Assembly (NCBI GenBank): GCA_020137815.1 | Contig: CM035361.1 | Location: 3,782,001-3,846,000, forward strand | Length of the DNA: 64,000 nt | Direction of reading: 5' to 3' | Source: Hormiphora californensis | Lineage: Eukaryota > Animalia > Ctenophora | Part shown: positions 4,669 to 42,140 of the stretch, in pieces | Layout: the number at the start of each line of letters is the position of its first letter | Numbering within the stretch: position 1 is the stretch's first letter | The notes under the pieces: generated by a model | Told to the model about the DNA's origin: nothing | What the model saw: the letters and a program-made list of their open reading frames with translations, nothing else | Databases searched by the model: none | Made by a program: the position numbers and the translations under genes

Positions 4669-5047
4669 CCCCCCCCCCCCGCTTTCGAGATCTGTGATTC
4701 CTCACCGATGGTGATTGAAATTGTTGCCATCTTGTGGTTTCGGATCTTGGTTTATTAATTAGGTATCGCAGGCTTGTCTCGTGGGAGAGTTAGAGGGAGA
4801 TAGGAAGAGAGAGAGAGATAAAGATAGCGATGGAGATGGAGATCAGAGAAAGGAATAAGCTAGCTTTTCGATACATGTGTGTCGTCCGAAAATGAGATGC
4901 CTGCAGCAGTAGCCACGACGGGAACTGACATATCTTGATTGCATATCTCTCTCACGCAGTATTTTCCACTCTTTATTTGCCAGTATAGATCAGTTGGATG
5001 GGTAATATTACTCATGAGGTTGGCATGTCATATTATATGAGGTATAA

Positions 5048-5281
5048 GGGCGGGATCACACCGAGATCTTCGAAGAAATTTCTTCAAAGCACCAAACACA
5101 GTCACACCAAAATGTTTCGTTTGGAGCTTGCGCACGGATGGGTATTGCTAGTTTTTGAATCTGACGACAGTGAAAAGCATACAATAGCCATCCGCGCGCA
5201 AGCACCAAATGAAACATTTTGGTGTGACTGCGTTTGGTGCTTCGAAGAAATTTCTTCGAAGATCTCGGTGTGATCGCGCCC
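5048..5281. mobile_element. Palindromic MITE, PIF/Harbinger-like
   Basis: About 100-bp inverted arms GGGCGGGATCACACCGAGATCTTCGAAG...CTTCGAAGATCTCGGTGTGATCGCGCCC, flanked by TAA (5045-47) and TTA (5282-84). Confidence 0.7.
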
Positions 5282-5302
5282 TTAGTACCAGAGTTAGGCA
5301 GC

Positions 5303-6350: not shown

Positions 6351-6351
6351 C

Positions 6352-6725
6352 CGGTAGGCGGTAAATGTTAACCAGATCTGTGAGAATTTCGCACGTTTTT
6401 CCCCATAACTCAGCCATTTCTTGACCAATTTGCAAAATCTTTGGCTCATTGGAAAGAGGACATTGAGATCTCTCAAATGAGCTCAAGAAAATTAAAATTG
6501 GCGCAAATTGCGCGGCGTGGTGGCGAAAACGCGCGTTTTGCGCCATGACGCCGCGCATTTTGCGCCGATTTTAGTTTTATTGGGCTCATTTAAAAGAGCT
6601 CAATGTCCTCTTTCCAACGCGCCCAAGATTTTGCAAATTGGTCAAGAAATGACTGAGTTATGGACAAAAACGTGGTTTTGCACGTACGTTTTCTCTCAGA
6701 TCTGGTTAACATTTACCGCCTACCG
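6352..6725. repeat. Long imperfect inverted repeat abutting the foldback element
   Basis: CGGTAGGCGGTAAATGTTAACCAGATCTG at 6352 versus CAGATCTGGTTAACATTTACCGCCTACCG ending at 6725. Inner arms also pair. Confidence 0.8.
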
Positions 6726-17900: not shown

Positions 17901-19521
17901 GAGAATGGGTGTTTCCGGTTCCTGGTTAACACCCACTCCAACGAGTACCTACCCCAGGTGGATGAGATAGGTTATACGGTGGACATCCATCATTTCACGT
18001 TCTTCCAGGGCGGGAATAAGATTGAGATGTCACCGGGGTTCAAGTACAGGGTGGGAATAAAAAAGAGGATCCGAGAGGAGCTCCCGATTGAGGAGGGAGG
18101 GGAATGTGATCCGACCAAGGTGTCAAATAGCTATGGATCATATGACACTGCTACCTGTGAATACGAATGTAGGGACAAGTACATTAATGCAACATGTGGG
18201 TGTGTGATGTCCGCACCACCAAATAATATACATGATTACAAAACGTGTACGATTAGGCAGATGCAGAACTGTGGATGGTTGGCGTACTACAATTTTGTTA
18301 CTCGAGACGAGATTACCCCTCAGGTGAGAAATAAAATGTTAATGAAATGTTAATTAATTAGTTTATTTAATTGATATTTTGTTTAGCCCATTTATTTTTA
18401 CCACCCACCACCGCCCACTTCTCAGCCAAGCTCGTTTCTTCTAAAACCCCCCTCCCGGTACAAGCCCTCTAATTCCTCCCTCCCACAGCACCAACCCTCT
18501 AATTCCTCCCCCCTCCCACAGCACCAACCCTCTAATTCCTCCCTCCCACAGCACCAACCCTCTAATTCCTCCCTCCCACAGCACCAACCCTCTAATTCCT
18601 CCCCCCTCCCACAGCACCAACCCTCTAATTCCTCCCTCCCACAGCACCAACCCTCTAATTCCTCCCTCCCACAGCACCAACCCTCTAATTCCTCCCCCCT
18701 CCCACAGCACCAACCCTCTAATTCCTCCCTCCCACAGCACCAACCGTCTAATTCCTCCCTCCCACAGCACCAACCCCTATTACCCCACCCCTCCCAGCAC
18801 CAACCCTCTAATTCCTCCCCTCCCAGTACAAACCCTCTAATTCCTCCCACCCACAGCACCAACCCTCTAATTCCTCCCTCCCACAGCACCAACCCTCTAA
18901 CACCCCTTCCCCAACCCACAGCACCAAGAGACGGATGATGACGAATACGCCCACGACCTCCTCAACGAGGACGAAGGAGGTAACCCAGACCACCTTGTCG
19001 TTAACGAGAATGAGGTCCACACACGAGCATCCCAACCTCCTGACCCCACGACCCGACCAGAACAACTTGCTACCACAACATGGCCACCCACATCCATGCC
19101 ATTTGTTAGCGCTGATGACAAACTAAACTGTTCATCCTCCTGCCCGGTTCCCTGTCACAAGACATTCTTTGACATCATGGTGTCGACGTCAAAAATCTCA
19201 AAACGCTACGCCACCGCTCTGGCTAAGCAACTCCGCAGCCAGAAGAAAGACTCGAACGCGACAGCAGAGTATATCCTTAAAAACCACGTACTGATGGAGT
19301 TCTACATACAGGACATGTTCACGGAGAAAATAACTAATGTACCAGCATACGGACTATGGCATTTATTGTCCGATATCGGAGGGGTGACTGGACTGTTCCT
19401 TGGAGCCAGCCTGTTTTCCTTTATTGTGTTTTTCAAAAGCTCGGTACTCCGCGTGTATCTGTATATCAGAAACTCTGACGGACCCTGGAATGCGATAAAA
19501 AAGAATTTAAAGAAACCTTGA
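14954..19521 (+). CDS. DEG/ENaC (amiloride-sensitive sodium channel/ASIC superfamily) subunit, 5 coding exons, about 588 aa
   Basis: Exons 14954-15053, 15613-15710, 16628-16723, 17451-18323 and 18922-19521 join in phase with GT-AG introns. Motifs: TM1 (WKAFYVAAWVAAAIYSF..IFIGRYF), FPTISICNMN, GKCYLFN, Cys-rich thumb (CEYEC..TCGC..CPVPC), TM2 LLSDIGGVTGLFLGASLFS containing the GAS filter. The first two exons are less certain. Confidence 0.9.
15701..16515. repeat. 33-bp G-rich minisatellite in ENaC intron 2, about 24 copies
   Basis: Unit TCTAGGGTATGTAGCGAGGGAGGGAGGGGGTAT. The first unit overlaps the exon 2 donor site. Confidence 0.95.
16840..17445. repeat. Pyrimidine-rich (CTCTCTAACACCCT)n minisatellite in ENaC intron 3
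   Basis: Variable-length units containing CTAACACC run up to the exon 4 acceptor. One more unit lies at 15075-15095. Confidence 0.85.
17000..17107. mobile_element. 108-bp MITE with possible 9-bp TSD
   Basis: TIR G(n)CGGCTGAAGTTTTTGAAGT / ACTTCAAAAACTTCAGCCGC(n). TCTCTCTAA flanks both sides (16991-99 and 17108-16), but inside a repeat, so the TSD is weak evidence. Confidence 0.6.
18465..18927. repeat. 30/33-bp minisatellite in ENaC intron 4, about 14 copies
   Basis: Unit CCCACAGCACCAACCCTCTAATTCCTCCCT. The last unit supplies the exon 5 acceptor CCCACAG|CACCAA. Confidence 0.92.
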
Positions 19522-20001
19522 CAGTTTGTCAGACGGTGTCTGAACTCTGAAATTAAATAATTAATTAACTAATTAACTAATTAATTAATTATCGTTATGC
19601 AGAGCTATCAGCGTGGTGTCTGACATATGATTTGGGAGATCGAGTGTTGTAAAGATCTTTGGGGTATCTAGATCTATCGTGTGTGTATATAATAGTGTAC
19701 ACATATTGTTATATGTATCTATGTATGACCAAAGTATAGTTTGAAAATCAAATTCGTTCCAAAAAGTGGCCTTCTTAGTTTATATTAAAGCTTGACGTTT
19801 GATTTTCAAATTGTGGTATCAGCTTGTATTGAACATGAACCTGAACGATCTGTATATTTGCTGACAAGTCGTCCTTTATGTTTTTAATGTATTTCTAACA
19901 AAATATATACGTGTTTTTTATCTTCTTTATTTTTGGAAAAGGCGGGGACAACAGGTCAATGGTTGGGGCAAAATCGCATTTGCTGCTGACGTCCTCTATA
20001 A

Positions 20002-20497
20002 CAGGGTGTCCCACTGTCTTTGCGTGACCTGCGATTTTGGGTCATGACCGGGCTCCATTGAATTAATCAAAACTCACCAAAAAATAGGTCAAAATGGTTC
20101 AAACAAAAACCAGTGTTCTAGAGAATTGTCAGGCGAACATTTTGGTTGCAAGATTGACGTTCCAAGTCTTACCAATCGTCAGATATATCGTCTTAAAGTC
20201 AAAAATACGTGTTCATGAAATCCGCATCATGAAACTTTGCATTTGTGAATTTTTCAAAACGTGAACCCCGGTCTGATTTCATGAACACGTATTTTTGACT
20301 TTAAAACGATATATCTGACGATTGGTAAGACTTGGAAAGTCAATCTTGCAACCAAAATGTTCGCAGCTGACAATTCTCTAGAACACTGGTTTTTGTTAAA
20401 AGCATTTTGAGCTATTTTCCGATGAAATATGATCATTTTAATGGAGCCCGGTCATGACCCAAAATCGCAGGTCACGCAAAGACAGTGGGACACCCTG
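20002..20497. mobile_element. Tc1/mariner-type palindromic MITE (copy A)
   Basis: Long TIRs starting CAGGGTGTCCCACTGTCTTTGCGTGACC and ending GGGACACCCTG|TA. Near-identical copy at 33812-34307. Confidence 0.8.
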
Positions 20498-21299
20498 TAC
20501 TATGTCAGCTAATTAGCGTATAGTACTCGACTGAACGGAATATAGTGATTAACACAGTGTGGCCGCGCGTTTGGTATCTCTCTGTATAGCACGCGTCTCG
20601 GTAATACCGATATAATACCAATTCTTGGTGTTCGGAAGAAATAGCGCTAATTAGCGGTGTTTAGTATAGGAGTCTGGTCTGCCGTCTGGTATTTGGGATA
20701 AGTATTAAGTATTTATCCAGGGCAGGTTTCATTGCTTCCAGGGTCATCTTATTCTTGACCGTTGCTGGTACTGAGTTGAACAGCCCAATAGCGGAGGAAG
20801 TGCAGGCTTTAGGACTGTAACTCACCTGGGCATGTAAATTAGATCTATAGAGGGTCAAAAATACATCACCCCGATATACCGGGCACCCCGATATACCGGG
20901 CAAAATGGCTTCCCTCGAGGATCCCGGTAAATCGGGGTGCGACTGCAGTAGTCCTAGAACTAGAAACTCGATATGATAACAGTCCTGTACCTCTTTTTTT
21001 AAGTGTGTCGCACCAGGCGTCCAGGCACCTGATATGTCTTCAGAAACCAGCTAGAAGCTTTTATATATGTGTGTATGTGTGCAGTACGCCTTATTGTTCT
21101 TCTATGAAACTTCTATTTGAACAAAACATTGTTCAACTGCTCTGATCCTATACATGTATACAGTGGTACAATTTCCAGAATGGGATAATTCGTTTCACTT
21201 CCCATGTGCCATATTCACCATTCTAACATTTTTTTATTGATTTGATAATGGTGCGGAACACGTAAACTTTGGTAGTATGGTAGTTAAGGTCGTGCGCAC

Positions 21300-22545
21300 T
21301 TTTTGGCGCCATTTGGCGCCAAATTGGCGCCAAATTGGCGCCACGTGGCGCCACGTGGCGACTGCGCACTGCCGCCAATTTGGCGCCAAATTGGCGCCAA
21401 GTTGGCGGTTTTTTGGCGCCAAATGGCGCCACGTGGCGCCAATTGGCGCCACGTGGCGATTATAAATCGCCAAGTGTTGGCGGTAATTGGCGGTACCGCC
21501 ACGTGGCGATGCACATTTTTCTGGATAAACTGTGCCCACCGCCAAGTGGCGCCAAATTGGCGCCAAATTGGCGCCAGGTATTTTTTAGTCTTGGCGCCAA
21601 ATTGGCGCCAAATTAGCGCCACTTGGCGAGTGCGAACATTCAGAAGCGTAAATTAACCACATTTTTGTCGCCAACTTAGCGCCAACTTAGCGCCAAATTG
21701 GCGCAAAGTGCCAAACACCGCCAATTTGGCGCCAACTTAGCGCCAAATTGGCGATTGGCTACAAATCGCCAATTTGGCGCTAAGTTGGCGCTAAGTGCCA
21801 AGCACCGCCAATTTGGCGCCAACTTAGCGCCAAATTGGCGATTTGTAGCCAATCGCCAATTTGGCGCTGAGTGCCAAGCACCGCCAAATTAGCGCCAAAT
21901 TGGCGATTGGCTACAAATCGCCAAATTAGCGCCAACAATTTGGCGCTAAGTGCCAAGCACCGCCAATTTGGCGCCAAATTGGCGGTGCTTGGCACTCAGC
22001 GCCAAATTGGCGATTGGCTACAAATCGCCAATTTGGCGCTAAGTTGGCGCCAAATTGGCGGTGCTTGGCACTTAGCGCCAACTTAGCGCCAAATTGGCGA
22101 TTTGTAGCCAATCGCCAATTTGGCGCTAAGTGCCAAGCACCGCCAATTTGGCGCCAACTTAGCGCCAAATTGGGTAGTCCCGCCATGGCGGTAGTCAATC
22201 GCCACATGGCAAAATTTTGGCGCCAAACACGCCATATGGCGGTCGGGAGTGGCGCCACACCACGGGAGTGGTGCCATACATGCTCTGGCGGTACTTGGAT
22301 GGCGGTGGCGTGTGGCGCCATTTGTTGAATATGGCGCCAACTTATGGCGCTAACAAAAAAACCGATTTCTGGAGTGGCGCCACACCACTGGAGTGGCGCC
22401 ACATTTTAAAAACTCTGGCGGTATGCAAGTGGTATGTGTGTGGCGCCAACCGTTGTCGTGGCGGTAGTCAAACGGCGCCACACATTAGCGCCACATTAAT
22501 GGCGCCACATGATAATGGCGCCACATGATCATGTGGCGCCATATG
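21300..22545. repeat. GGCGCC-core palindromic repeat array, ~11-bp units in both orientations
   Basis: Dozens of TTGGCGCCAAA, GTGGCGCCAC and TTAGCGCCAA units with higher-order inverted blocks. Confidence 0.85.
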
Positions 22546-22734
22546 GACATTGCCGAGAATGAGTCCTTCCGTGAGCGAATTTTTTGAAGTTGTCTGTGTC
22601 ACCTACATAAGCCTGTCAAAACGTGTTTCGACATAGAACTCACTAGCGGCAAGCCAATTCCGGTTGTAAATTCTAGGTATAGGCCCCCTGAACATAAAAA
22701 ACCAAAATGTCAGTCTCAATTATTTGGATTACCT

Positions 22735-22958
22735 ACAACTATGGCTCATGCAACTATGGCTCATAAAATCTATGAGCCATAGATGCATGCAACTATGGCT
22801 CATAGATTTTATGAGCCATAGATGCATACAACTATGGCTCATAGAAATGTGATCTGATTAGGTTCTATGAGCCAAAGCTAGTGAGAGTGAGTGACACGTG
22901 AGTGACACGTGAGTGACACGTGAGTGACACGTGAGTGACATGTGAGTGACACGTGAGT
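22735..22958. repeat. CAACTATGGCTCATA inverted/direct repeats followed by an 11-bp tandem (GTGACACGTGA) x6
   Basis: Directly visible. Confidence 0.8.
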
Positions 22959-23101
22959 TTTCGAATCATGTAATATTAAATGAGCACAAATGCAAACGAT
23001 TTACATAATGATAAATCTAATATTACATAATTAAAATTACACTATCAGTTCATCTTGGATATAATGGTAAAAGGGGTCCTTCTTTGGACAGTCATTAGAG
23101 C

Positions 23102-23201
23102 NNNNNNNNNNNNNNNNNNNNNNNNNNNNNNNNNNNNNNNNNNNNNNNNNNNNNNNNNNNNNNNNNNNNNNNNNNNNNNNNNNNNNNNNNNNNNNNNNNN
23201 N
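23102..23201. other. Assembly gap (100 N)
   Basis: N run, followed by about 2 kb of error-rich sequence. Confidence 1.
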
Positions 23202-24374
23202 GTTTTTAATTTTTGGGGAAAAGACTTGGGTGGGTATTAAAAATTCAAATTTTTTTTTGGAAAAAAGAAAACGATTGGGGAACAAGAGAAGAGGAAAAAA
23301 AAATAGGGAAAAAGGGAAGGAGAAAGAAGAAGGGGAAAAGAAAAGAAAAAAAAAATAGAAAAAAAGAGAAGAAGAGGAAAAAGAGGAGAAGGGGATAGAA
23401 GAAGGGGAAAAAAGGGGAAAAGGAGGAAGGGGGTTTGAAAGAGAAGAGGGGGGAAAAAATAAGGGGAGAAAAAGGCCTAACAAAAAAACCCCCTTTTTGA
23501 CCCTTTTCTCTCCCCCCTCTCTTTCTCTCTCTTCTTTCTTTCCTCTCTCCTCTCCTCTTTTTTCTCATTTTTTTCTCTCTCAATTTTCAGTTTATAATTC
23601 ACTAAAAAATTTAAAATTTCCTACAAGGTGGGGACCTGGAACCAAACGTGTTGTCGTCGCGTGGAAACATTTTTTTTAAACACCACATCACGACACCAAA
23701 AGTAGTAAGTCGTTCAAATTTTTTTTCGGAGTAGAATGAGTAAGCCCCAAATAAAGGTTGGACTTGTACATTTACCTTTGTTGTCATTCGGGGACATACT
23801 TTTTACACCAGAACAGAAAAAAAACTTTAAAAGCTGTAGAGCATCACTTCGAGATTAAAGTGGATATTATGCTTATTGGGAAAAAGGGTTAAAATTTGAG
23901 TTTTTTGGACCAAAACTCAATTTTCGAAAAAATTGGGTTATACTTTATCGGAAAGGCAAAATATTACCCCCCCTCCCAGTACCCAAACCCCCTAATTCCT
24001 CCCCCCCCCACAGCACCAGCCCTCTAATTCCCCTCCCACAGCACCAACCTTAATTTCCCCCCCCCACAGCACCACCCTCTAATTCCTCCCCCCACACACC
24101 AACCCTATATTCCTCCCCCTCCCAGTACCAACCCCCTAATTCACCCCACCCCCCCCCCCCTTTTCCCAGCACCAAACCCCCCATTTCCCCCCTCCCAGTA
24201 CAACCTTAATTCCCCTCCCCCTCCCCAAACCCTCAAATCCCCTCCCCCTCCCCCCCCAAACCCCTTTAAATTTCCCCCCTCCCCCCCCCAGCACAACCTC
24301 TAATTCCTCCCCCCCTCCCCCGACCCGCCCCTAATTCCTCCCCCCCCCACCAACCTCTAATCCCCCTCCCCCAG

Positions 24375-24941
24375 CACCAAGAAAGGATGACGACGAAAAC
24401 GCCCACGTTGCTCAACGAAGAGAGGGAGGTAACCCAGACCACCTGTCGTTAACGAAACGAGGCCACACTGGGGCTCCCAACCCCCCGACCCCCACCGCCA
24501 AAAATCGCAACCAAAAACTGGCCTCCCAATCATCCCTTTGTTAGCGTTTTGATGAAAAACTAAACTGTTCATCCCCCTGCCCTGTTCCTTGCCAAAAGAC
24601 TTTTTGAATCATGGGCGACGTCCAAAATCTCAAAAGTTACGCCACCGCTCGGCAAGAACTCCGCAGCCAAAAAAAAAAGACTCAAAAAACGCGACAGCGA
24701 GTATATCCTAAAAACCAGTACGGAGGAGTTTTACATACAGGATATGTTCACGGGAAATAATAATGACCAGAATACGGACTAGGGCTTTTACGTCCGATAT
24801 CGGGGGGGTGACTGGGGTCCTTGGAGCCACCCTTTTTTCCTTTATTGTGTTCTTCAAAAGCTGGGTACCCGCGTGTATCTGATATCAGAAACTCCGACGG
24901 CCCTGGAATGCATAAAAAAAAGAATTTAAAAAAAACCTTGA
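24375..24941 (+). pseudogene. Second, indel-riddled copy of ENaC exon 5 (probably an unpolished allele or paralogue rather than a true pseudogene)
   Basis: Colinear with 18922-19521. Preceded by a degraded intron 4 minisatellite (23965-24374) and followed by the same 3' flank. The differences are mainly homopolymer-type indels next to a gap. Confidence 0.75.
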
Positions 24942-25182
24942 ATTTTGTCAGACGGTGTTGAACTCTAAAATTAAAAAATTTAATTAAAAATTTAAATTAA
25001 TAATATATTTGCGAGCTATCAGCGTGGGTTGAATATGTTTGGGAGATGATGTTGTAAAAGATCTTTGGGGTTCTGATCTAAAAAACCGTGTGTGTAAATA
25101 GGTAAATATTGTTTATAGTATGTATGTATGGCCAAAGTATAGTTTGAAAATCAAATTCTTTCCAAAAAGTGGCCTTCTCAGC

Positions 25183-28100
25183 CCCCAATCAAATATTGGT
25201 CCTATCTATAGTATTAAACTGGCAGCATCCTGACTTGAAATCAGCATAATATTCAGCATTCTCATCTATTTTTCAGCACTTTTCCTGTTAGTCATAAGGA
25301 TCTGCAGTCACCACACTTGCTGAAAATCTCGCTGAAAATCTTGCTGAAAATCATTCATCCTGCTGAAAAAGACATGTGCTGGTAATACATTGGAGGGCGC
25401 GGGTTGACTTTGCGCGTGCTAACCGTAAATCTCGCGCGACCAGTTCAACCAATCTGCTGAAAAATCTGCTGAAAATTGACCAGTTCAACCAATCTGCTGA
25501 AAAACGTGCTGAAAATTGATTCAGCCACAAATGTACCAAATAAACAGTTGTGCAGTCTCTCACACATTCTCCTCTCATTCTTCAGGAAGCCTGTAAAGCC
25601 TGTGATGCTGTGTGCTGCTGCTATAGCCGTTTATGTGTTGATTTCTACTACCGATGATAGAGAATAAACGATTGTGTAGCATTTACGTGAACAGTACTGT
25701 GTACCGTTATATTTAATTGTATTTCTAGCACGTATAATTGATGTTTGATGTGCATCATGTGTATTTCACTAAGAACTATGTGACAGAATGAAAAATGAAC
25801 TGTGAAAAGCTGTGTATTGGTGTTATGTTCAGCAAAAGTTTCATTTGATTTACTTAATCATCCTTGTTTACTCATCTTGTATGAAACCTGGAACCGGGAA
25901 AGGCATGAAGGAGGTACAAATCACAATACTTGTGCTGTGTGTACTGTGTGTATGTACAATGTACTAGCATATGCTGGTTGCTGGATGCTGGTCGAGAATT
26001 TCGCGCGGCGCGCTGCGAAGGTGACTGCTTACGAGTTGGCTTTTTATTGACAAGACTCCTGCGCGCTCGGCTAAACCCACGCACCATGCACCCATGCTAT
26101 ACACGCGTTATTCGTGTACTAAGTACAATGTACATTTTTAAACCTTTTACAAATACAGACGAAATCTTCACCAGGCCGGGTAACGAAGTTAATAAATGAA
26201 TAGAATAAATTAAAATGAAACGAAATACACACAAATACAGTCTATTCTCGGAAGAAAGATGGGGCCTTGCCCCTTTGAGACTGGTCCAGGCTTTTGATGG
26301 TGGAGCTTGTTGTGATCAGCCTGTTTGCTTCGGGGAGGTTGAGATAACCCTCGGTTGGTACATATGTACCTCTACCGCCATCGCGTTCTGGGTTCGCCAG
26401 GCGTCGGGTTACCGTAGAGAGCAGGACGTCAGCATCTCCTCCCATCATCTTGGGCCCATTTCTGGCGATCCACATCTCGTTGTCAAGGTTGGTACTTTCC
26501 TGCTCCATTCCAACGGACAAGAAACGGGAGTTATGATAACGCTCGAGTACGGAGCCAATCGTCTCACAGATGGCCTCAGAGGAAGAGGTAGACACCAAAA
26601 TGTGGACCAGCTCCCTGATCCCCCTGGTCAAAGACACCTTCTCCCTTATCACCTCCTCCGCGGCGCACACAGAAGGGAAAGATGCCAACTGGAGGACCAA
26701 CAGTAGATCTGTGAAGGCCACCAAGGTAACCTCCTCGGGTCGAGATGTCAGTTTCGCCAGACTGGTGAGGGCGTCCTCTATCTCCTCTCTCTCTGGAACT
26801 CGCCTCCCTGGATGGACCTTACAGGCGTACTCGAGGGCCCTGGTGACTACCGCAGCACTCTTGACGAGCTTGATGTGGGGAGTCTTCTTCAGATAATCGT
26901 GCTCAAACTTTGAGAAGGACTCCCCGATCTTCACCATCTCGCCAAGAACCTTGCTGTACTCCGCTAGCTGGCTTTCCCTGGAGTCACGGGCTCCAGACCG
27001 GTTGGCTGGGTAGTCACCCTGAAAGTCCTCGGCTGGATCTTTCATCATCTCGTGGAGGGTTTTGAAAGGGGTCGACCGACCCGGAGTGCACATCTTCATG
27101 GCCTTGAGATCAGCCACCAGCTTCTCCAGCTGATACACGCTTTCACATATCAGGCTGTCCTTCTGAACGGCCAAACTAGCCGGCCTCAGGAACTGGACTA
27201 CACAGGACACAAAACAAAGATCTCTCCTGAACGAGTCCTTTGATATAGCACGTATCAGTCCAGGGGCCTTCTTGTTCGGCTGCTTCCGGGTCAGGAGGGC
27301 ACGGGCATCAGAGCGCTCAGATGAGAGTCCCAGGAGGTCGTTCAGGTCAAATTCCTCCTCCTCCTCTTCTTCTGACTCCGTCATACCATCATACCTCTCC
27401 TTCTTGTAGACGCGCCCTTCCGCTAGCCGCTGGAGGATCCCTTCACCATCTGCAGGGATTGGAGGGGTTAATTAAATTAAAACAAATGGTTGATATCTGA
27501 ATTTTTATGATATTAATAAACTACATTGCACAGTGCAATGTACAATGTACATTGTACATTGAATGTACATTGTACATTGCACATACTTGATACTACATAC
27601 CATCTCGGATCAGATATGGGAGGATTTTGATAAAATCTGCTGTGAGCAAGCAGTCCCAGGCCACGAATTTTATCTCCTTGTGCACTTTTGGTGTTGGAAG
27701 CTGGACGCCGTGCTCCTTTGCCACTTGCAAGTAGACTTCATAAGCAGAAGCCTCTCGTAACAAACTGGACACTAGTCCTACTGTGACAATAACGGAAGCT
27801 ATCCGTTTGAACTTCTTAACAGCGTTCTGCAAAGATTAAATATTTTAGTAATTAGTAACTTATTACCTATTACCTAATACCTATCCTCAAATATCAACCC
27901 TGATTGAGTGTTGGACTTAGAATTCAGATTTCAGATAGAAAAATATTTCCATTTCTCACCTTCCAGATCAGCTCAACAATATGGGCATGGTCCCAAAGTG
28001 TCAACACGGGGTGGTCACGGGGGTTCCTTCCGAATTCCTCAAGGATATGGGAATTGATGAAAACATTTAGAAATGCTCCATCATACACTCCCCCCTTAAA

Positions 28101-31100
28101 GCCCGCCTTCACCATCTCATCAGTCATCCCGATCTTGTGAAGGAGCTTGATGATCGTCTGGGCCAGGCCTTTTCCATCATTGCTGATTGGGACGGGTGCA
28201 CCAATGAAGAATTGATGGGATTTCCCATCAGCCACAAACCGCATAACAACGATCAACCTGTAATTGTAGAGGAACAAGGGTTAGATATTGTAATATGTCT
28301 AGCCGCCTACTTCAAGTTTCAACTGTACTTCATACTTATATCAGTATTCAGTAGTTGCTAGTTAATTTAAACTGACGTTTTCGGTAATTACCTCTTTCTC
28401 TTTTTACTGGTATCTTTATCAGCTGTTAGAGTAAAAGGGGTCGGCCACTCCCCATTCCCGCCCGACATAAATCCAACAAATCGCTGGTGAAGTTCCTTGG
28501 CTATGGCGGCATTCACAACTGTCGGGTAATGGGCGCTATGCCCTTTATCGCCAATTTCGACCCCATACCGCTTCAGCAGGGCAACCTGGTAGATGATAAA
28601 CACACATTTAGGGGAAGTAATTAAGCATACTATATCAACCCTCCTCAATCAGTTTTGTTCATATTAGAGGTATTTCTTATTTCTTACCTGTTCCGGGTAA
28701 ACACTGTATGGAATACAGTGAAGGACGTCAAAGTAAATTTGGGTCACAAGTCGGTGGCGAATAGTGTGACCAAGATCCTTCTTCTTCTCCTCCTTCTCTT
28801 CGTCCTCCTCATGCGTGATCCTAAATTTCCTCCAACTGAATCTCAGGTGGTTTCGGAGATCAGCGGTATGGTTGTTCCAGGTAGGCGACCTCGGCATCCT
28901 TGTCAACCTACCGGATCTTTTGTCGAGTTTCTCGCCGGGTGGTCTAGCGAGTTCGGGGAAAGTGTACCCCTTGCACCAGTGATTCGTCACTTTAGCATGC
29001 CTCTCGCAGTGTGTACACGTGACACGGTTTGTTTCTGTGTCAAGCTGGAAATTGGAATACAAAAGTTAGAACTCTTTTGATTCAATTCGTGGAAACAAAG
29101 TTGAAAGTAAATGATTACAATTCTGACTCCACCGTATACTGTATAGACTATAGATTGTCTAACTTACCGATAGAAAGGGCAGCGCTTTAAGTAGTTCAGA
29201 GCGGCTTTCTGCTGCTGATACCGCGGCCAGCATATCGATCAGGTATCCTGGTAGGTCACTATCATTGTGGCCCTGGTACCGTTTTCCACAATCTACCCCA
29301 GTGGCAGGTTCTCGTTCCTCTACAGTAACTGGGGCCCGGGGGGTGATCACCATATCCTTCAGTTGGTGAACAACTTGTCGTATTTGTGCTGAAAATGGGT
29401 TTATCGTTAATAACGATTCGGTAAATCAGTGAGAGAGATTAAATACAAAACATTAGGCCTCAGATTACAGTTTACACGCCTACACACATGAGTTGACAAT
29501 TGACACCCCATACCCAGTCCCACTCTCTCCAACTTACCAAGGTCATCAGTTAAACCAGTGTGCTGGTTATCCTTGATTTGGTCCACAACACTCCGTATAT
29601 ACACTGCAGAGAGGGTCATTAACTTATAAGGGGATATTACTTCATTTATTGCTGACGAGATGGTACTGTTATAGTGCCATCGAAACATTTGTCCAAATGA
29701 GACGACTTACCTAGATCAGCAGTGACGTCATCTGCTATTTCCTCGGCCTCATAGTCTCGATTGCCCACTTCACTCCCACTATTATATGTCCCACTGAGCT
29801 CACTTTCGTCTGCTTCAAGAGTAATGGAATCGTGTTAGTTATAACTTAAAATTCGTAATAACGATATGATAATAGTACTATTAATTATAACTCTTCATGG
29901 TCAATCAATTGATTTGATTGATTGATTGAACTCTCACGATTTATAAGTTTAAAACCTACCCAGTCCATCAATACAACTCTTTGGTCGTTTACGTTGTTGC
30001 TCCTCCTGGGGTTGCTGCTGTTGCTGATGTTGCTGCTGTTGTTGTTGCTGTTGTTGTTGCTGTTGCTGCTGCTGCTGTTGTTGCTGTTGCTGCTGCTGTT
30101 GTTGCTGGTGTTGCTGTTGCGGTTGTTGCGGTTGTTGTTGCTGTTGTTGCTGCTGTTGTTGCTGTTGCTGTTGTTGCTGTTGTTGCTGATCTATAATGTA
30201 CATATCAAGCTGTGCAGCCGGTTTCATTACTGGAACGTAGTTTCGCTCTATTGAATCCACCGTCGCTCGGGCCTCCCCAGGTTTCCTAGATGGAAGTAAA
30301 TTGTTAGTTGCTACACTTGGTAACTTGGTAGTTAATTGCTTTGAATAAAGTTTGTAGGTATTCCATATTATCTGCTGTAATCGTTAACTTACTGCAATGC
30401 TTGCAAATGCATTTTCGTATGTGTGCCCCGGTTGCGCCAGCTGAAGGCCTTTTTCTTTTTTCCATCATTTATACAAATCCGGCATTCATACGGTCCGGCA
30501 GCTTCTCGTGACAAAACTTTCGGCATGGTTGTTGTTGTTGTTATTGGTGTTGTTGTTGAGGTGTTGACGAATGATAACGATTCGAAATTGATTTGTCGGA
30601 ATAATTCTAATCTAATTTCCGCATACTCTAATTGAATTTCCGCACGCTCCACTTCATATGAAGCACGCGCCGCGCGTGCCACACGTGACAGTGCAAAATG
30701 CTAATTTCTTTGAATTGGTCGTCAAAAGTGAAACTTACATCTTTTTGGTAAAAAGGACATTACTGCATTAGAAGCATCCATTTTCAGTACACTGATATCA
30801 ACGAGACAGCACAAAGTCAAACACGTTAAATGATGAAGTTAAAGGAAGTAAGTCCTCTATCCCTGAAAGGAGGATGTTAATTTGATTTTCACTGTCATTT
30901 TCACTGCCATGCTGTAAATAGCTGGTGATCCATTGTTGCTACCCTCGTAACTAACGCTTTGGTTTACTCCGCAAAATATCACATCTCGATTTTCATTCTC
31001 GAATTACGCGCGCGGTACGAATTACGCGCGCGGTACGTAAGGCGTTTATTTCAAACTAAAACCGCCGCGACGCATCATTCTGCCCGCGCGCCACCAATAT

Positions 31101-31886
31101 TAGCGTGGGAAAAAAATCACATCGGATTTTGAATTCGTAAAACTTGATTTGTCGAATCACGCGCGCGCGGCGCGTGCGGCGTCTATTTCAAACTAAAACC
31201 GCCACGACACATAATTTCCCCCGCGCCACGAATCTTAGCGCGGGACATACTATACATTTAAAATAAAATGTACATTGTACATCGTTGATCGTTCCGTTCA
31301 TTTTTCTAGCATCCGACCTTCCAGTAAAAGTTAAATGGCAGATCTTTAAACTTCAAATAAAAATCATCGAATTATGCATATAATACAGCTATGACGTATA
31401 ACACTTGATCAATCCCGTATAAATAATAAAGTCCGTGTCAGTTGCCGGCGTCAGACGTGTTTCAATACTTGACTTAGCTCTCAACATTCAACAGTCAACA
31501 GTCAACAGTTCATGTTTCAACCTGCAATGGTGGACTTATTAAATGGTTAAAATCGCTCAAAAAAGAGCCCATATGGCCAAAATTTTCCGGGGGCTTCGCC
31601 CCCTGGACCCCTACCAGGGGCTTCGCCCCTGGACCCCACTGGGGGCCTCAGGCGGCCCCCAGACCCCCTCCCCGACCGCAAACATGCTCACTCCGGCGCC
31701 GCTTCGCGGCACCTCCGCTCGCGACAACATGCTCACTCCGGCGCCGCTACGCGGCACCTCCGCTCGCCCTGAATTTCATGTGGTGTGTGAAATTCAGCAT
31801 CCTGAGCATTATTGGCATCCAAAATTCAGCATCCTTCCACTTAAATCAATCCAATTGGTTGGGATTTTTTCAATATTTGATTGGGG
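25183..31886 (-). mobile_element. Full-length 6704-bp DNA transposon, divergent hAT-like
   Basis: Perfect 16-bp TIRs CCCCAATCAAATATTG (25183-25198 and 31871-31886). 8-bp TSD TTCTCAGC (25175-82 and 31887-94). Empty site at about 19772-79 (TTCTTAGT). Subterminal TGCTGAAAA/TTCAGCA repeats at both ends. Confidence 0.92.
26242..30526 (-). CDS. 10-exon hAT-like DDE transposase, about 1042 aa, with N-terminal C2H2-like finger and polyQ tract
   Basis: Exons 30526-30393, 30285-29960, 29809-29711, 29603-29538, 29388-29168, 29044-28688, 28585-28392, 28257-27960, 27826-27601 and 27449-26242 all join in phase with GT-AG introns (3129 nt). Motifs FTLTADKDT (first D), GGVYDGA (second D), WDHAH (CxxH position) and SSSEAICETIGS (E) occur in hAT order. 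Confidence 0.82.
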
Positions 31887-32050
31887 TTCTCAGCTTATAT
31901 TAAAGCTTGACGTTTGATTTTCAAATTGTGGTATCAGCTTGTATTGAACAATAACATGAACATGAACGATCTGTATATTTGCTGACAAGTCGTCCTTTAT
32001 GTTTTTAATGTATTTCTAACAAAATACATACGTGTTTTTTATCTTCTTTA

Positions 32051-33736
32051 CACGCGTCATACACATTTTTATTTGGAATTTCTATCTGGGATTTCTATTT
32101 GGAATTTCTATCTGGAAGAACCGCACGTGCAGATGCGCCGCTCCGCGGCTCAAGTTCACGTGCGAGATTAAAGAGAGAGACGCACATGTTTGTTTGTTTG
32201 TTTGTACTTGCTGCGTCTGGCGAGTGACCTGCCCGAAAGTAGCGGCGGCCGCACCGAGCACGCTTATTAGGCGCCCCAGCACGTCCACCACTCCGCCGTA
32301 GCAAGGCCACCCACCAATCAGTTTATGCAGAGCATGTTACTTCAGACGCTCCAGGAAGACCGTGGTCAACCACTGGCGACGCCGAGCGGCAGGGGTATCA
32401 CACTACTCCTGGCCTAAATCAATTCCTAAGGGTGACATTAAGCTGGAGCAGGTAACGTTTTGCCTTTGAGAGTGTCTTGAGTTAAATTTGGTCTGGAACA
32501 AGGTAACGTTTTGCCGTTGAGAGCGTCTTGATTTGAGTTTGGTCTGGAACAAGGTAACGGTATCCCTTGGAGAGATTCTTGTGTTTGGTTTAGTCTGGAT
32601 CACGGTAACGATTTGCCTTTGAGAGTGCCTTGAGTATAGTTTGGTCTGGAACAAGGTAACGTTTTGCCTTTGAGAGTGTCTTGAGTTGAGTTTGTTCTGC
32701 AACAATGTAGTCTTGGACTTGGTCTGGATCAAGGTAACGTTTTCCATTGTGAGTACGGTCTGTTACAGCGCTAGCTAAATATACTAAGAATACGATTTTA
32801 ATCTCGCAATGGCAACGTTCATGTTTTGGATACAACTGTACATAACAACGGACTGACAAACTTACGACCTTGATGGATGTGATGTGTACCGTGACGTATT
32901 GGTGATGAGATGAGAAGTGTGTCCATTTCCAGTAGAGACAGAGATAAACGAAAACGATCAAACACAAATAAGGGGTAGGACAGATTGTAGGGCTAATGGA
33001 ATGTAAGATGTTCTAGAAGACAAGTCGGGTGGGACAGATAAGAACATTTGTTAATTGTTACACGCGATAAGCGACAAGAAAACGAGCAGGTATTGAGTGC
33101 GTCAGAGATCAGATATTAGAGGTACTGTGTTGAAAGATACAGAAAAGGAGCACCATTTGACAGAATGACTGAACTAGGCGACACGGTTGTGAAGTGATAG
33201 ATTTAGGATTAAAGAGAGACTTAGACGGGTGTATGTCAGTGTAACAGAGCATTCAAAATGAAACAAACATGAAACTGCAAATGTATGAACTGTTTGAGAG
33301 ACGCACATTAACGTTGTACGTTTGTCTCTCACTCTCTCTTGAAAACCCGCACGTGCAGATGCGCCGCGCCGCGGCTCAAATTCACGTGCGTGTTAGGGTC
33401 ACCACACACCAAAGTTAAAATTAAAATTAAAATTTTGATTTTAAACCCGCACACACCAGCGGCCGTTAAAATTTCTCTCCCCCATTCTAAAAGTAACAAT
33501 CTCACGCGCGATTTTAACGGCGTGTTAAAATTTTGTCATCCAACGCGACCGTCAAAATCGTGCGTGAGATCGTTACTTTTAGAATGGGGAGAGAAATTTT
33601 AACGGCCGCTGGTGTGTGCGGGTTTAAAATCAAAATTTTAATTTTAATTTTAACTTTGGTGTGTGGTGACCCTTATACAGATTCTGACAGAAAATTCGAG
33701 GACAAAATTCCATATAAAAATGTGTATGACGGACTG
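32051..33736. mobile_element. Non-autonomous Tc1/mariner-like element, TA target
   Basis: Imperfect ~30-bp TIRs CA..CGTCATACACATTTTTATWTGGAATTT, flanked by TA (32049-50 and 33737-38). Absent from the duplicate at about 19929. Contains a 51-bp tandem repeat (32445-32745) and a 44-bp direct repeat (32121 and 33347). Confidence 0.8.
33396..33672. mobile_element. PIF/Harbinger-type palindromic MITE nested in the previous element
   Basis: About 130-bp TIRs starting GGGTCACCACACACCAAAG. TTA target duplication at 33393-95 and 33673-75. Confidence 0.85.
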
Positions 33737-33811
33737 TAATTTTTGGAAAAGGCGGGGACAACAGGTCAATGGTTGGGGCAAAATCGCATTTGCTGCTGAC
33801 GTCCTCTATAA

Positions 33812-34307
33812 CAGGGTGTCCCACTGTCTTTGCGTGACCTGCGATTTTGGGTCATGACCGGGCTCCATTGAATTAATCAATTAACTCACCAAAAAATAGG
33901 TCAAAATGGTTCAAACAAAAACCAGTGTTCTAGAGAATTGTCAGGCGAACATTTTGGTTGCAAGATTGACGTTCCAAGTCTTACCAATCGTCAGATATAT
34001 CGTCTTAAAGTCAAAAATACGTGTTCATGAAATCCGCATCATGAAACTTTGCATTTGTGAATTTTTCAAAACGTGAACCCCGATCTGATTTCATGAACAC
34101 GTATTTTTGACTTTAAAACGATATATCTGACGATTGGTAAGACTTGGAAAGTCAATCTTGCAACCAAAATGTTTGCCTGACAATTCTCTAGAACACTGGT
34201 TTTTGTTAAAAGCATTTTGAGCTATTTTCCGATGAAATATGATCATTTTAATGGAGCCTGGTCATGACCCAAAATCGCAGGTCACGCAAAGACAGTGGGA
34301 CACCCTG
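33812..34307. mobile_element. Tc1/mariner-type palindromic MITE (copy B, part of the duplicated segment)
   Basis: Same sequence and flanks as 20002-20497. Confidence 0.8.
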
Positions 34308-34348
34308 TACTATGTCAACTAATTAGCGTATAGTACTCGACTGAACGG

Positions 34349-36073
34349 GGCAATTTTGCATTTGCAGGCATCGCACTATAGACGCAGTACCCACGTACTA
34401 TAGACGCATTATAAACGCATTATAAACGCATTATAGACGCATTATAGACACACGCAATATAGACGCAATTTCGTAAGCAGCACTATAGACGCAATATAGA
34501 CGCATTATAACAGCAATATAAACGCATTTTTATAGACGCGACGCAGTATAGCCGCATTATAGGCGCACTACCCACCCCAAAATCACCTTATAGACGCACT
34601 ATAGACGCATTATAGACTGACTATAGCAGCACCATAAACGCTACATAGACCCATATAGACGCATGATAGAAGCATTATAGACGCAAATCGCTTTTTATAG
34701 ACGCCGCGTCTATAAAAAACGTGCTTTTTAAAGAAGCACTTTTGACGTACTCCAGGCTACAGTGCGATATTTGAGGCGCAGTTGGGCGTTTTATAAACGC
34801 ATTTTTGTCGCATATAAAAGGAAGCAGTATAGACGCATTATAGACGCATTATAGCCGCATGTGTGTGAAATCGATAAAGACGCAATATAGACGCAAAATA
34901 AAAAGGAGAGGGAGAGAGAGGCGAGGGAGGGAGGGAGAGGGAAGGAGAGGGAGGGACTGAGGGAGGGGTACAGGGATAGAAACAGACGGATAAAGACCTG
35001 AGACAGAAGGACAGAGTAAGATGGAAAGAGAGTAAGATGGAAAGATAGTGATATATAAGGGACGGAGTGAGACATAAAAAGAGTGAGACAGAAAAAGACA
35101 GAGATGGAAACAAACGGACAGAGACAGACGGACGGACAAACACGCGCTTACTATCTCCCTCTCTGTCTCACTCTCTCTCTCTCCACTCTCCCCCCCCCAT
35201 CTTACTCTGTCCTTCTGTCTCAGGTTTTTATCCGTCTGTTTCTGTCCCTGTACCCCTCCCTCAGTCCCTCCCTCTCCTTCCCTCTCCCTCCCTCCTCTCC
35301 CTCCCTCCTCTCCCTCCCTCCTCTCCCTCCCTCCTCTCCCTCCTCTCCCTCCCTCCCTCCCTCCCTCCCTCCCTCCCTCCCTCCCTCTTACTCTGTCCGT
35401 CTGTCTCAGATCTGTGTCCATCTGTCTCTGTCTGATCTGTCTCTGTATCCCTCCATCTTTCCCTCTCCTTCCCTATCCCTCCCTCCCTCCCTCCCTCTAG
35501 TCTCTCTCCCTCTCCTTCTTATTAATTGCGTCTATATTGCGTCTTTATCGATTTCACGCACATGCGTCTATAATGCGTCTATAATGCGTCTATACTGCTT
35601 CCTTTTATATGCGACAAAAATGCGTTTATAGTTCGCCCAACTGCGCCTCAAATATGGCAGCGTGCGTCTGAGTACGTCTATAGTGCTTCTTAAAAAAGCA
35701 CGTTTTTTATAGACGCGGCGTCTATAAAAAGCGATTTGCGTCTATAATGCTTCTATCATGCGTCTATATGGGTCTATGTAGCGTTTATGGTGCTGCTATA
35801 GTCAGTCTATAATGCGTCTATAGTGCGTCTATAAGGTGATTTTGGGGTGGGTAGTGCGCCTATAATGCGGCTATACTGCGTCGCGTCTATAAAAATGCGT
35901 TTATATTGCTGTTATAATGCGTCTATATTGCGTCTATAGTGCTGCTTACGAAATTGCGTCTATATTGCGTGTGTCTATAATGCGTCTATAATGCGTTTAT
36001 AATGTGTTTATAATGCGTCTATAGTACGTGGGTACTGCGTCTATAGTGCGATGCCCGCAAATGCAAAATTGCC
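34349..36073. mobile_element. Non-autonomous Mutator/Foldback-type element
   Basis: 9-bp TSD ACTGAACGG (34340-48 and 36074-82). About 550-bp TIRs starting GGCAATTTTGCATTTGC and built of TATAGACGCA repeats. Empty site at 20530-38. Confidence 0.9.
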
Positions 36074-36977
36074 ACTGAACGGAATATAGTGATTAACACA
36101 GTGTGGCCGCGCGTTTGGTATCTCTGATCTGTACAGCACGCGTCTCGGTAATATACCAATTCTTGGTGTTCGGAAGAAATAGCGCTAATTAGCGGTGTTT
36201 AGTATAGGAGTCTGGTCTGCCGTCTGGTATTTGGGATAAGTATTAAGTATTTATCCAGGGCAGGTTTCATTGCTTCCAGGGTCATCTTATTCTTGACCGT
36301 TGCTGGTACTGAGTTGAACAGCCCTTAATAGCGGAGGAAGTGCAGGCTTTAGGACTGTAACTCACCTGGGCATGTAAATTAGATCTATAGAGGGTCAAAA
36401 ATACATCACCCCGATATACCGGGCACCCCGATATACCGGGCAAAATGGCTTCCCTCGAGGATCCCGGTAAATCGGGGTGCGACTGCAGTAGTCCTAGAAC
36501 TAGAAACTCGATATGATAACAGTCCTGTACCTCTTTTTTTAAGTGTGTCGCACCAGGCGTCCAGGCACCTGATATGTCTTCAGAAACCAGCTAGAAGCTT
36601 TTATATATGTGTGTATGTGTGCAGTACGCCTTATTGTTCTTCTATGAAACTTCTATTTGAACAAAACATTGTTCAACTGCTCTGATCCTATACATGTATA
36701 CAGTGGTACAATTTCCAGAATGGGATAATTCGTTTCACTTCCCATGTGCCATATTCACCATTCTAACATTTTTTTATTGATTTGATAATGGTGCGGAACA
36801 CGTAAACTTTGGTAATCATTGACTAAGCAATCATCTGTCAGGAGATCAGTTGTCAGCTGAAAGTTGTCAGGCAGACCTTGCTAAAAGTGTTGCAGTGACA
36901 TAGACACCTGGTGCGGGGGGTCGCACACAGGGGGGTCGCGCTTGGTGACATTGACACCTGGCGTGACCCCCCGCACA

Positions 36978-37291
36978 CAGGCGTCGGCTCCGTCCCAAAA
37001 AGGGTCGTTTCTTTCAATTAGGGATGTTGCACGCGATCCACTGGACCGATTTGCATCCGGAGCCGACACCCGGCGCGACTCCCCGCACACCCGGGTGTCG
37101 GCTCCGCCCCAAAAAGGGTCGTTTCTTTCAAGGGATGTTGCACGCGATCCACTGGACCGATTTGCATCCGGAGCCGACACCCGGCGCGACTCCCCGCACA
37201 CCCGGGTGTCGGCTCCGCCCCAAAAAGGGTCGTTTCTTTCAAGGGATGTTGCACGCGATCCACTGGACCGATTTGCATCCGGAGCCGACAC
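36978..37291. repeat. 111-bp tandem repeat (about 2.8 copies) inside a GTGACATAGACACC-bounded element; related 74-bp hairpin at 37914-37985
   Basis: Units start at about 36982, 37095 and 37206. GTGACATAGACACC at 36895 versus GGTGTCTATGTCAC at 37317. Confidence 0.75.
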
Positions 37292-42050: not shown

Positions 42051-42140
42051 TGAAAAATATTTCAAAAGTTTTTCAAAAATTCTTGTTTAATGCATTCTAA
42101 CCCAGCTAATTCCTCCCTATCAGACACTAGCTACAGCAGC

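Follow-up and report, generated by a model that had tools for sequence, protein, structure and literature searches.

The segment between positions 25183 and 31886 (6.7 kb) of the window, by which we mean the whole 64-kb stretch of DNA subjected to sequence analysis here, is very probably a complete DNA transposon, perfect at both ends and carrying an uninterrupted gene of ten exons, the product of which would be a divergent cut-and-paste transposase of the hAT type (i.e., with the Hermes fold). The case is built on its ends, the 8-bp duplication that flanks it, an empty counterpart site, an open spliced frame that is under selection, and the conservation of the catalytic motifs in distant relatives. 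The features of the element, by position in the window, are the following.

19771 to 19778, plus strand: empty counterpart site, from flank alignment
25175 to 25182, plus strand: left copy of the target site duplication (TSD), TTCTCAGC, from flank comparison
25183 to 25198, plus strand: 16-bp terminal inverted repeat (TIR) beginning CCCC, at the 3' end of the transposase gene, from sequence
25241 to 25512, both strands: 10 subterminal TCAGCA/TGCTGA repeats (3 on plus, 7 on minus), from motif count
26242 to 27449, minus strand: exon 10 (aa 641-1042), predicted helical insertion domain, E932/E936 (26577, 26565), NGP motif and stop
27601 to 27826, minus strand: exon 9 (aa 566-640), K618-F619 at the position of Hermes R318-W319, by motif order
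27960 to 28257, minus strand: exon 8 (aa 466-565), D525 as candidate for the second catalytic Asp, and W-D555-x-x-H558
28392 to 28585, minus strand: exon 7 (aa 402-466), D457 as candidate for the first catalytic Asp
28688 to 29044, minus strand: exon 6 (aa 283-401), C292-x2-C295 motif
29168 to 29388, minus strand: exon 5 (aa 209-282), skipping of which breaks the frame
29538 to 29603, minus strand: exon 4 (66 nt), frame-neutral, placed by splice consensus only
29711 to 29809, minus strand: exon 3 (99 nt), frame-neutral, placed by splice consensus only
29960 to 30285, minus strand: exon 2, glutamine-rich run (about aa 78-142), then RKRPK
30393 to 30526, minus strand: exon 1, ATG and C15-x2-C18...H36-x3-H40
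30739 to 30781, minus strand: possible extra upstream exon, with an ATG and a strong donor
31794 to 31831, plus strand: 2 subterminal TCAGCA repeats at the 5' end, from motif count
31871 to 31886, minus strand: 16-bp TIR at the 5' end of the gene, from sequence
31887 to 31894, plus strand: right copy of the TSD, from flank comparison

The termini are as the original prediction had described them. The perfect 16-bp TIRs, CCCCAATCAAATATTG, occur once on each strand, and no third copy was found in the window with up to 3 mismatches allowed. Immediately outside them the exact 8-bp TSD reads on both flanks, evidence that comes from a single insertion; the chance expectation for a 16-bp TIR and 8-bp TSD pair within 15 kb is about 5e-6 for this window. 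The empty site proposed earlier was likewise recovered: the flanks of the element match one contiguous stretch (19464-19778 and 19772-19929) in which the 8-mer is present just once and has 6 of its 8 bases identical and 2 changed. Because the counterpart stretch is contiguous, with just this one 8-mer, the CCCC/GGGG ends belong to the insertion. The counterpart is either a tandem duplicate or the other haplotype, and beyond about 60 bp the left flank resembles error-rich sequence.

Two other delimitations were considered. A hAT-like CAAT sits 3 bp inward of the CCCC end, but a canonical CA start at that point was ruled out, since the outer CCC/GGG is absent from the empty site; shortening the TSD to 7 bp, with five Cs at the left end, is compatible with the empty site and was dropped, since the ends would become asymmetric. 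The empty site lies about 250 bp beyond the stop of an ENaC/DEG channel reading frame. By analogy with known elements, the subterminal TCAGCA repeats are likely to be transposase binding sites (the background of TCAGCA/TGCTGA is 47 in the 64-kb window).

The ten minus-strand exons splice across GT-AG introns into 3129 nt, encoding 1042 aa and a stop with no internal stop, in agreement with the gene model first put forward. All nine introns (102-151 bp) carry stops in all three frames, and their GC content is 33% versus 51% in the coding sequence. The motifs singled out at the outset (ADKDT, YDGA, WDHAH, EIKF, and SEAICE) are found at residues 456, 524, 554, 616, and 931. Since exons 3, 4, and 6 can each be removed without creating a stop, the argument from phase gives these three no support; exon 6 is backed by homology, whereas exons 3 and 4 are not, and exons 1 to 5 as a whole lack homology support. 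Joining the candidate upstream exon (30781-30739) at 30651 keeps the frame and would give 11 exons and 1098 aa. The cysteine-histidine pattern of exon 1 is likely to be a C2H2/BED-like zinc finger, with no Pfam match on it, and the C292-x2-C295 pair, common to the database relatives P0021 and P0022, is likely to form a further zinc module. The RKRPK that follows the glutamine-rich run of exon 2 we take to be a putative nuclear localization signal. One presumed RNA run covers only a repeat in intron 9.

Searches with the spliced protein recovered a 697-aa database protein, P0021 (24% identity over 709 columns, E 6e-30), collinear with exons 6 to 10; in a two-sequence search exons 7, 8, 9, and 10 each match it alone and in order (E 2e-7 to 5e-10). 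No gap falls on junction 6/7 or 7/8 in either P0021 or P0022; for P0021 and P0038, junction 8/9 is also gap-free until a gap of 2 columns opens five residues further along. Against the diverged copies of the element, 25 of 37 coding differences among those listed are silent, where 23% would be expected (p 1e-8; 37 of the 40 listed difference rows, the 3 noncoding rows being excluded), a sequence signature showing that the transposase frame is under selection. Judged by the ordered per-exon matches to P0021 and the silent coding differences, the gene is real.

The relatives amount to 20 matches among 1.84 billion representatives, a count from which P0020 (40%, 3086 aa, scattered stretches) was excluded as likely spurious. 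The family of P0021 includes three more full-length members (96-97% identity), the pattern of a multicopy element, and P0022 is evidence of a wider group with the same motifs. P0040 resembles a fused gene prediction, with a MULE match (aa 1132-1211) outside the homologous part. Word-indexed homologue searches gave 0, 2, and 2 matches; exon 10 had no relative among the viral contigs searched, and a metagenome search with a 20-base end pattern gave one match, with surroundings unlike the element. A tree of the C-terminal region is mostly unresolved, its sole grouping being exon 10 with P0002. Two relatives that are about 20-25% identical share the two Asp residues, WDxxH, [K/R]F, ExxxE, and N[G/M]P, and motif changes held in common with such distant relatives are traits of the lineage and not decay. 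Specifically, D457, D525, E932, and E936 are conserved in P0021 and P0022; DxxH is found in this protein and in 3 of the 3 relatives that span the position; and the basic-aromatic pair is KF here and in P0021, P0038, and P0018, and RF in P0022.

The original prediction had proposed a fold comparison with Hermes, which we ran on P0021, so that the structure discussed here is that of a 24%-identical relative and not of the spliced protein itself. Its model has a pLDDT of 57 (under 50 over the RNase H core, residues 150-258, and beyond residue 600). In Foldseek all 8 matches at E<=0.001 are Hermes (best E 2e-5), and with this weak model the P element (6pe2) and RAG reach E 0.15 and 0.14. Hermes is also the only chain with Z>=8 among 48,161 (Z 12.4, rmsd 4.1, 241 aligned), although a Z near 12 can occur by chance in helical proteins; six Hermes entries score Z 10.9-12.4, and the next unrelated row scores 6.1. 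The model matches the overall fold and the Hermes-type helical insertion domain. The alignments (10-15% identity) start at an offset of +6 (254=260, 256=262, 257=263), which would place D259/H262 of the P0021 model on Hermes C265xxH268; after trimming they end at 605=569 and 605=565, the Hermes Glu being E572 and the one here E932 or E936. A second model, of P0022, was too poor for use (pLDDT 35). Two profile searches of PDB sequences did not find Hermes and returned nothing relevant, and no Pfam family scored above cut-off on the transposase region of the spliced protein or of any relative scanned. In the ESM Atlas, 21 of 30 matches of exon 10 carry Dimer_Tnp_hAT alone (PF05699, here a feature similarity and not a Pfam match), and P0021 scores 0.90-0.95 against unnamed, C17orf113, DUF4371, Dimer_Tnp_hAT, and FAM200 clusters; 4 of its 10 best family-bearing matches share a family or clan, which is weak for a family call.

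The hAT-related reading advanced earlier is supported by the collinear homologue, the Hermes-only structural match of P0021, the Atlas neighbors, and the spacing of the two Asp residues, which at 68 (D457-D525) equals that of Hermes D180-D248 as given in an excerpt of PMC6027215. The element also displays the 8-bp TSD, short TIRs (10-25 bp), and subterminal repeats that excerpts of PMC3942097 and PMC4763223 describe as hAT traits (here 8 bp, 16 bp, and 10 + 2 repeats, respectively). In comparison with Hermes and other hATs (PDB codes 8edg, 4d1q, 8sjd, 6dww, 6dwz, and 2bw3), the protein has the His after the second Asp, a basic-aromatic pair, and a large helical insertion before the Glu, but differs in having DxxH for CxxH (the His being kept), KF for R318-W319, and ExxxET[I/Y]GS around the Glu. 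Its CCCCA ends fail the hAT consensus (T/C)A(A/G)NG of the same excerpt of PMC6027215, and no Pfam hAT model matches above cut-off. The element is also larger (6.7 kb versus 2.5-5 kb for hATs), and its protein, of 1042 aa with 9 introns, compares with about 640-660 aa for BuT2 and hobo in the sources excerpted. The departures emphasized in the original prediction (DxxH, KF, and CCCC) are present. Two of them, DxxH and KF, are less strange than it implied, because within the hAT/P/MuDR/Kolobok/Dada group DxxH is already known to stand in for CxxH (according to an excerpt of PMC3706591) and other aromatic residues can substitute in part for Hermes W319 (PMC5225508). We predict a divergent hAT-type variant and not a new kind of element.

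Whether the lineage is novel is a separate matter: with the same mechanism, it may already be cataloged (e.g., as a hAT-n of Repbase/Dfam, near the ZNF862/C17orf113/Tip-like hATs), with only the family being new. This alternative, which bears on novelty and is compatible with the explanation preferred here, strikes us as a serious possibility but not the probable one. ZNF862/C17orf113/DUF4371/FAM200 proteins, which are hAT derived (on the Tip and Buster side), lie near P0021 in the ESM Atlas (0.91-0.94) and have a comparable C-x2-C module before the catalytic core. The NGP motif near the C terminus presumably also resembles that of ZNF862-type hATs, and the wider group seen through P0022 would fit a known lineage. 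Those proteins, however, keep CxxH and RW, and their Pfam models do not match this transposase. Repbase, in an excerpt of PMC4455052, names such families simply hAT-n. Against a cataloged lineage stand the absence of any Pfam match above cut-off, the scarcity of relatives, and the labels, carried by 2 of the 31 cluster members listed and informative in neither. We found no description of a WDxxH/KF/CCCC hAT group among the papers that our literature searches listed, and the hAT subgroup names are not present in the supplement of PMC12730594. The hATx-6 element of Hydra, likewise an 8-bp-TSD hAT of an early-branching animal, differs in its construct end, which begins TAGGG, and in its gene block, which reads CxxH (translated by eye from an excerpt of PMC8721813).

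About as probable, and likewise short of an even chance, is that a genuine element has lost its mobility, this copy being the last one intact, or a silenced one, in a family that has already done most of its spreading. Read contigs were placed on 25090-29940, which covers the side of exons 3 to 10 and the 3' TIR. Run X1 contains contigs identical to this copy alongside contigs about 10% diverged with indels; the interval 25576-26547 has a flat depth of 16 and one identical contig, most other contigs of the family being diverged or carrying indels, and many of the related copies in the reads are damaged by indels in exon 10. The one flat-depth contig and the diverged or indel-bearing majority favor an immobile copy, and the 24 bp of perfect TIR and TSD set only a weak limit on age. 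On the other side, the 3129-nt frame has no stop or shift, the nine introns have consensus sites, both ends are perfect, the counterpart site is empty, and a second individual (X5) yields a 386-bp contig identical to this copy; the lack of cover on 25576-26547 in X5 proves nothing either way. Read depth is high at the 3' end of the element, none of the matches listed has a loose end at the TIR boundary, and relatives are present in a second organism (X6). This copy is likely to be young and still competent, in a family that also has damaged copies and short, high-depth relatives sharing the end. The earlier description of it as recently active derives from its intactness; the element may still be able to move.

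It is improbable that the element represents a separate superfamily-level lineage within the hAT/P/MuDR/Kolobok/Dada group, its likeness to Hermes reflecting merely the nearest solved structure. DxxH, KF, the CCCC ends, and ET in place of ER, the latter being the canonical hAT form, all depart from canonical hATs, and there is no sequence-profile link to Hermes. Dada and Kolobok are not known to have a solved structure, so a fold search cannot rank them. Dada (Kojima and Jurka 2013, excerpt of PMC3706591) likewise carries DxxH behind its second Asp, has many introns (Dada-U6_DR is split into 11 exons), and encodes a long protein, but it has a 6-7-bp TSD, snRNA/tRNA gene targets, and a C-terminal CCHC finger, whereas this element has an 8-bp TSD, no RNA gene at its site (Rfam gave no match within 18000-37000, and no tRNA was found anywhere in the window), and no C-terminal CCHC finger that we could see. 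The P element has introns and a C/DxxH-type motif too, but its transposase structure, like that of RAG, scores far below Hermes against the weak P0021 model, and no THAP domain was matched by Pfam here. P elements have an 8-bp TSD and ends that begin CA. MuDR/MULE elements have long TIRs and a 9-bp TSD; the MULE domain PF10551 gave no match on the window exons, P0021, or P0022. The 8-bp TSD, the short TIRs, the subterminal repeats, the Asp spacing identical to that of Hermes, and the mostly hAT-related Atlas neighbors argue instead for a hAT affiliation. That the spliced gene is an artefact of splice-site choice, with the TIRs and TSD bounding a dead or noncoding element, has almost no probability left, for although exons 1 to 5 lack homologues and exons 3 and 4 are frame-neutral, collinear homology over exons 6 to 10 and the excess of silent changes largely refute it for those exons.

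For the divergent hAT-type transposase that we favor, a mechanism can be proposed by extension of the biochemistry of Hermes and Kat1. The zinc modules near the N terminus would recognize the subterminal TCAGCA repeats, the metal ions would be coordinated by D457, D525, and E936 (or E932), and H558 of DxxH and F619 would act as H268 and W319 do in Hermes. On excision, the host DNA on either side would be left with hairpins, and strand transfer of the 3'-OH ends into the target, with an 8-bp stagger, would produce the observed duplication. No new mechanism is introduced, as all structural features are compatible with cut-and-paste transposition by an enzyme of the Hermes fold.

Divergent transposase lineages are rarely represented by elements that are complete and apparently competent, and such elements are needed to define ends, TSD, and chemistry. 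Here a protein family unrecognized by Pfam is tied to a complete transposon, which provides a naturally occurring DxxH/KF version of residues essential in Hermes (H268 and W319). A bolder reading, which we regard as rather unlikely, is that this is an undescribed hAT branch or sister group in which the CCCC ends and the end-positioning residues (DxxH, KF, and ExxxET) changed together, the present copy being complete and still active. If true, this would provide both a gene-transfer tool in the host group and a natural test of how hAT transposases read the terminal bases. An active element might, in any case, be of use for transgenesis or mutagenesis in the host.

The perfect 16-bp terminal inverted repeats (TIRs), exact 8-bp target site duplication (TSD) and empty site of the original prediction were all recovered for the transposon at 25183-31886 (the element). 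The terminal 16-mer, CCCCAATCAAATATTG, maps to 25183 (+) and 31871-31886 (-), with no third copy in the window at ≤3 mismatches; the duplication TTCTCAGC is identical at both flanks; and such TIR-TSD pairs ≤15 kb apart have a chance expectation in this window of ~5 × 10−6. The 300-bp flanks align to one unbroken counterpart stretch (19464-19778 and 19772-19929) containing a single copy of the 8-mer, with two C-to-T differences. This empty site fixes the element boundary, and the CCCC and GGGG thus belong to the insertion. The segment at 18508-21274 is found again, beyond an N gap (23102-23201), at 23968-36814, there with three insertions. The two segments are 98-99% identical over their well-read parts, the sequence left of the element appearing error-rich up to ~60 bp from it; they may represent a duplication or two haplotypes placed one after the other in the assembly.

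A second insertion (34349-36073) is a non-coding foldback: its inverted arms measure 638 bp, its ends read GGCAATTTTGCA, and it is flanked by an exact 9-bp TSD, ACTGAACGG. It is missing from the counterpart segment at ~20530-20538 and resembles a non-autonomous MULE. The inverted ends of the third (~32050-33738), likewise missing there, are imperfect (…GTCATACACATTTTTAT…), and its interior carries tandem as well as inverted repeats. At 5045-6725 and 21300-22200, nested long inverted repeats (arms of 498 bp, 99%) and a palindromic array rich in GGCGCC are probably further non-autonomous elements. The element lies ~250 bp beyond the stop of an ENaC/DEG (Pfam ASC) channel gene (17394-19521 [+] and 24519-24940 [+]), possibly in its 3' UTR; a second, heavily frameshifted copy of its last exon lies upstream of the element, in error-rich-looking sequence. 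Elsewhere we observed open frames of 2506 codons with three calponin-homology stretches (47373-54893 [+]), 1016 codons, Ser/Glu-rich and matching no Pfam model (55341-58391 [-]), and 409 codons in a single exon with a weak, below-cut-off 7tm_1 match (42054-43283 [+]; E = 0.001). Together with the spliceosomal introns, the ENaC/DEG, calponin-homology and 7TM frames point to eukaryotic, probably animal, DNA.

Splicing the ten minus-strand exons in phase gave the predicted 1042 aa followed by one stop.

Exons of the spliced gene model of the element
30526-30393 (-), exon 1
30285-29960 (-), exon 2
29809-29711 (-), exon 3
29603-29538 (-), exon 4
29388-29168 (-), exon 5
29044-28688 (-), exon 6
28585-28392 (-), exon 7
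28257-27960 (-), exon 8
27826-27601 (-), exon 9
27449-26242 (-), exon 10

All nine introns (102-151 bp) are of the GT..AG type, have a GC content of 27-40% versus 42-55% in exons, and bear stops in all three frames. Since skipping exon 3, 4 or 6 singly leaves the frame stop-free, and a candidate 43-nt upstream exon could lengthen the protein by 56 aa, the N-terminal gene model is provisional. Intron 9 contains a palindromic TGTACA(A/T)TG-type repeat (27533-27584) with high depth in 4/4 read runs. At the 5' end of the element, a GC-rich subterminal block (31590-31770) carries a pair of 45-bp direct repeats as well as palindromes of G/C runs and resembles blocks known from many invertebrate DNA transposon ends.

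Pfam recognized none of seven exon peptides. Among 1.84 billion representatives, phmmer recovered 20 matches to exon 10 at E ≤ 0.001. One of these, P0021 (697 aa), aligns to aa 281-953 of the spliced protein (24% identity, 709 columns, E = 6 × 10−30), and exons 7, 8, 9 and 10 each match it singly, in order. It in turn retrieved a second, P0022 (1005 aa, 21%). In the homologous part of the relatives scanned, no Pfam model reached its cut-off, nor did P0022 match any. Four full-length members of the P0021 cluster share 96-97% identity, in keeping with a multicopy element, and the cluster members bear no informative name; the four full-length members of the P0022 cluster are near-identical (99.7-99.9%). 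A joint alignment showed that both full-length relatives keep D457, D525-G, W-D555-x-x-H558, [K/R]-F619, E932, E936, S940 and N971-x-P973 (in P0022: DKG, DGQ, WDPLH, RF, ESVVES and NGP), and all seven alignment rows retain the E, E, S and P of the C-terminus. The predicted DxxH, KF and CCCC are present. Being shared with these relatives, the motif changes relative to canonical hATs are lineage traits; the catalytic Glu of the proposed D/D/E is narrowed to two candidates, E932 and E936. We favor E936, whose column shows no variation in alignment A3 and whose surroundings resemble the S/C-E-R-x-F-S motif.

The fold was assessed on a model of P0021, the 24%-identical relative, built with a 23-sequence alignment (pLDDT 57, pTM 0.46; confident across most of 260-600, <50 at 150-258). 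After D162, it has three strands and then a helix, at low confidence, fitting an RNase H start. Hermes accounts for all eight Foldseek matches at E ≤ 0.001 and for the best 11 rows listed; RAG scored E = 0.14 and the P element E = 0.15. VIA-align against 48,161 chains likewise gave Hermes (Z = 12.4, rmsd 4.1, 241 aligned), the next scoring 6.1; six Hermes entries scored 10.9-12.4, the aligned ranges extending to 234-643 = 250-605. Three structural alignments start with an offset of +6, so that D259 and H262 of P0021 would fall on Hermes 265/268. The predicted hAT relationship is therefore upheld structurally through a relative, although sequence-profile searches did not reach Hermes. In the ESM Atlas, exon 10 recovered hAT dimerisation clusters and P0021 recovered unnamed, C17orf113, DUF4371 and FAM200 clusters, the latter query with a weak family consensus. 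The D457-D525 spacing of 68 equals that of D180-D248 in Hermes (cited section of PMC6027215).

Four read runs from one study, possibly of the source sample, contained 77-85% of sampled words, and read contigs were aligned over 25090-29940. In run X1, contigs of 1537 and 720 bp are identical to this copy and others are ~10% diverged and gapped; in X5 (same organism label, different study), most are diverged, several with exon 10 indels, and one of 386 bp is identical; in X6 (second organism), they are ~90-97% alike. X1 depth near the 3' TIR is >10 times that of the interior and contigs depart from the element past 25260, suggesting short non-autonomous relatives, with depth not equal to copy number. 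Among the 40 differences listed (274 further rows), 37 are exonic; 26 of these occupy third codon positions and 25 are silent versus 23% expected (p = 1 × 10−8). Purifying selection has acted on the frame since its divergence from these copies.

The sequence of the element shows an intact gene and what insertion with an 8-bp stagger leaves behind. By analogy with Hermes, Kat1 and Muta1 (cited sections of PMC4763223 and PMC5225508), zinc modules of the transposase would recognize the TCAGCA repeats near the ends (ten in 25241-25512 and two at the 5' end), the DxxH His would lie in the active site, the aromatic of KF would position flanking DNA (W319 being partly replaceable by other aromatics; PMC5225508), hairpins would remain on the host side after excision, and strand transfer would yield the 8-bp duplication. 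Joint evolution of the CCCC end and the altered residues can only be hypothesized.

By this comparison, the element appears to work like a hAT: it agrees in TSD, TIR size, subterminal repeats and fold (via P0021) but differs in terminal consensus, CxxH, RW and Pfam models. In the cited part of PMC3706591, Dada likewise has DxxH and numerous introns, yet it makes 6-7-bp TSDs and targets RNA genes; no RNA gene was found at the site of the element. hATx-6 has TAGGG ends and CxxH (cited part of PMC8721813), and the TSDs of hAT5, hAT6 and hAT7 are of other lengths (cited parts of PMC12730594 and PMC9004415). BuT2, with five exons, shows that multi-exon hATs are known (cited part of PMC3942097). Literature searches outside Repbase Reports and most subscription papers turned up no account of a CCCC-ended lineage with WDxxH and KF motifs. 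The element is a real, complete transposon of a divergent hAT-type lineage and is probably young. That it represents an undescribed, active hAT branch whose ends and active site changed together is a tentative reading that we consider rather unlikely; the P0022 family is a good target for delimiting the wider lineage.
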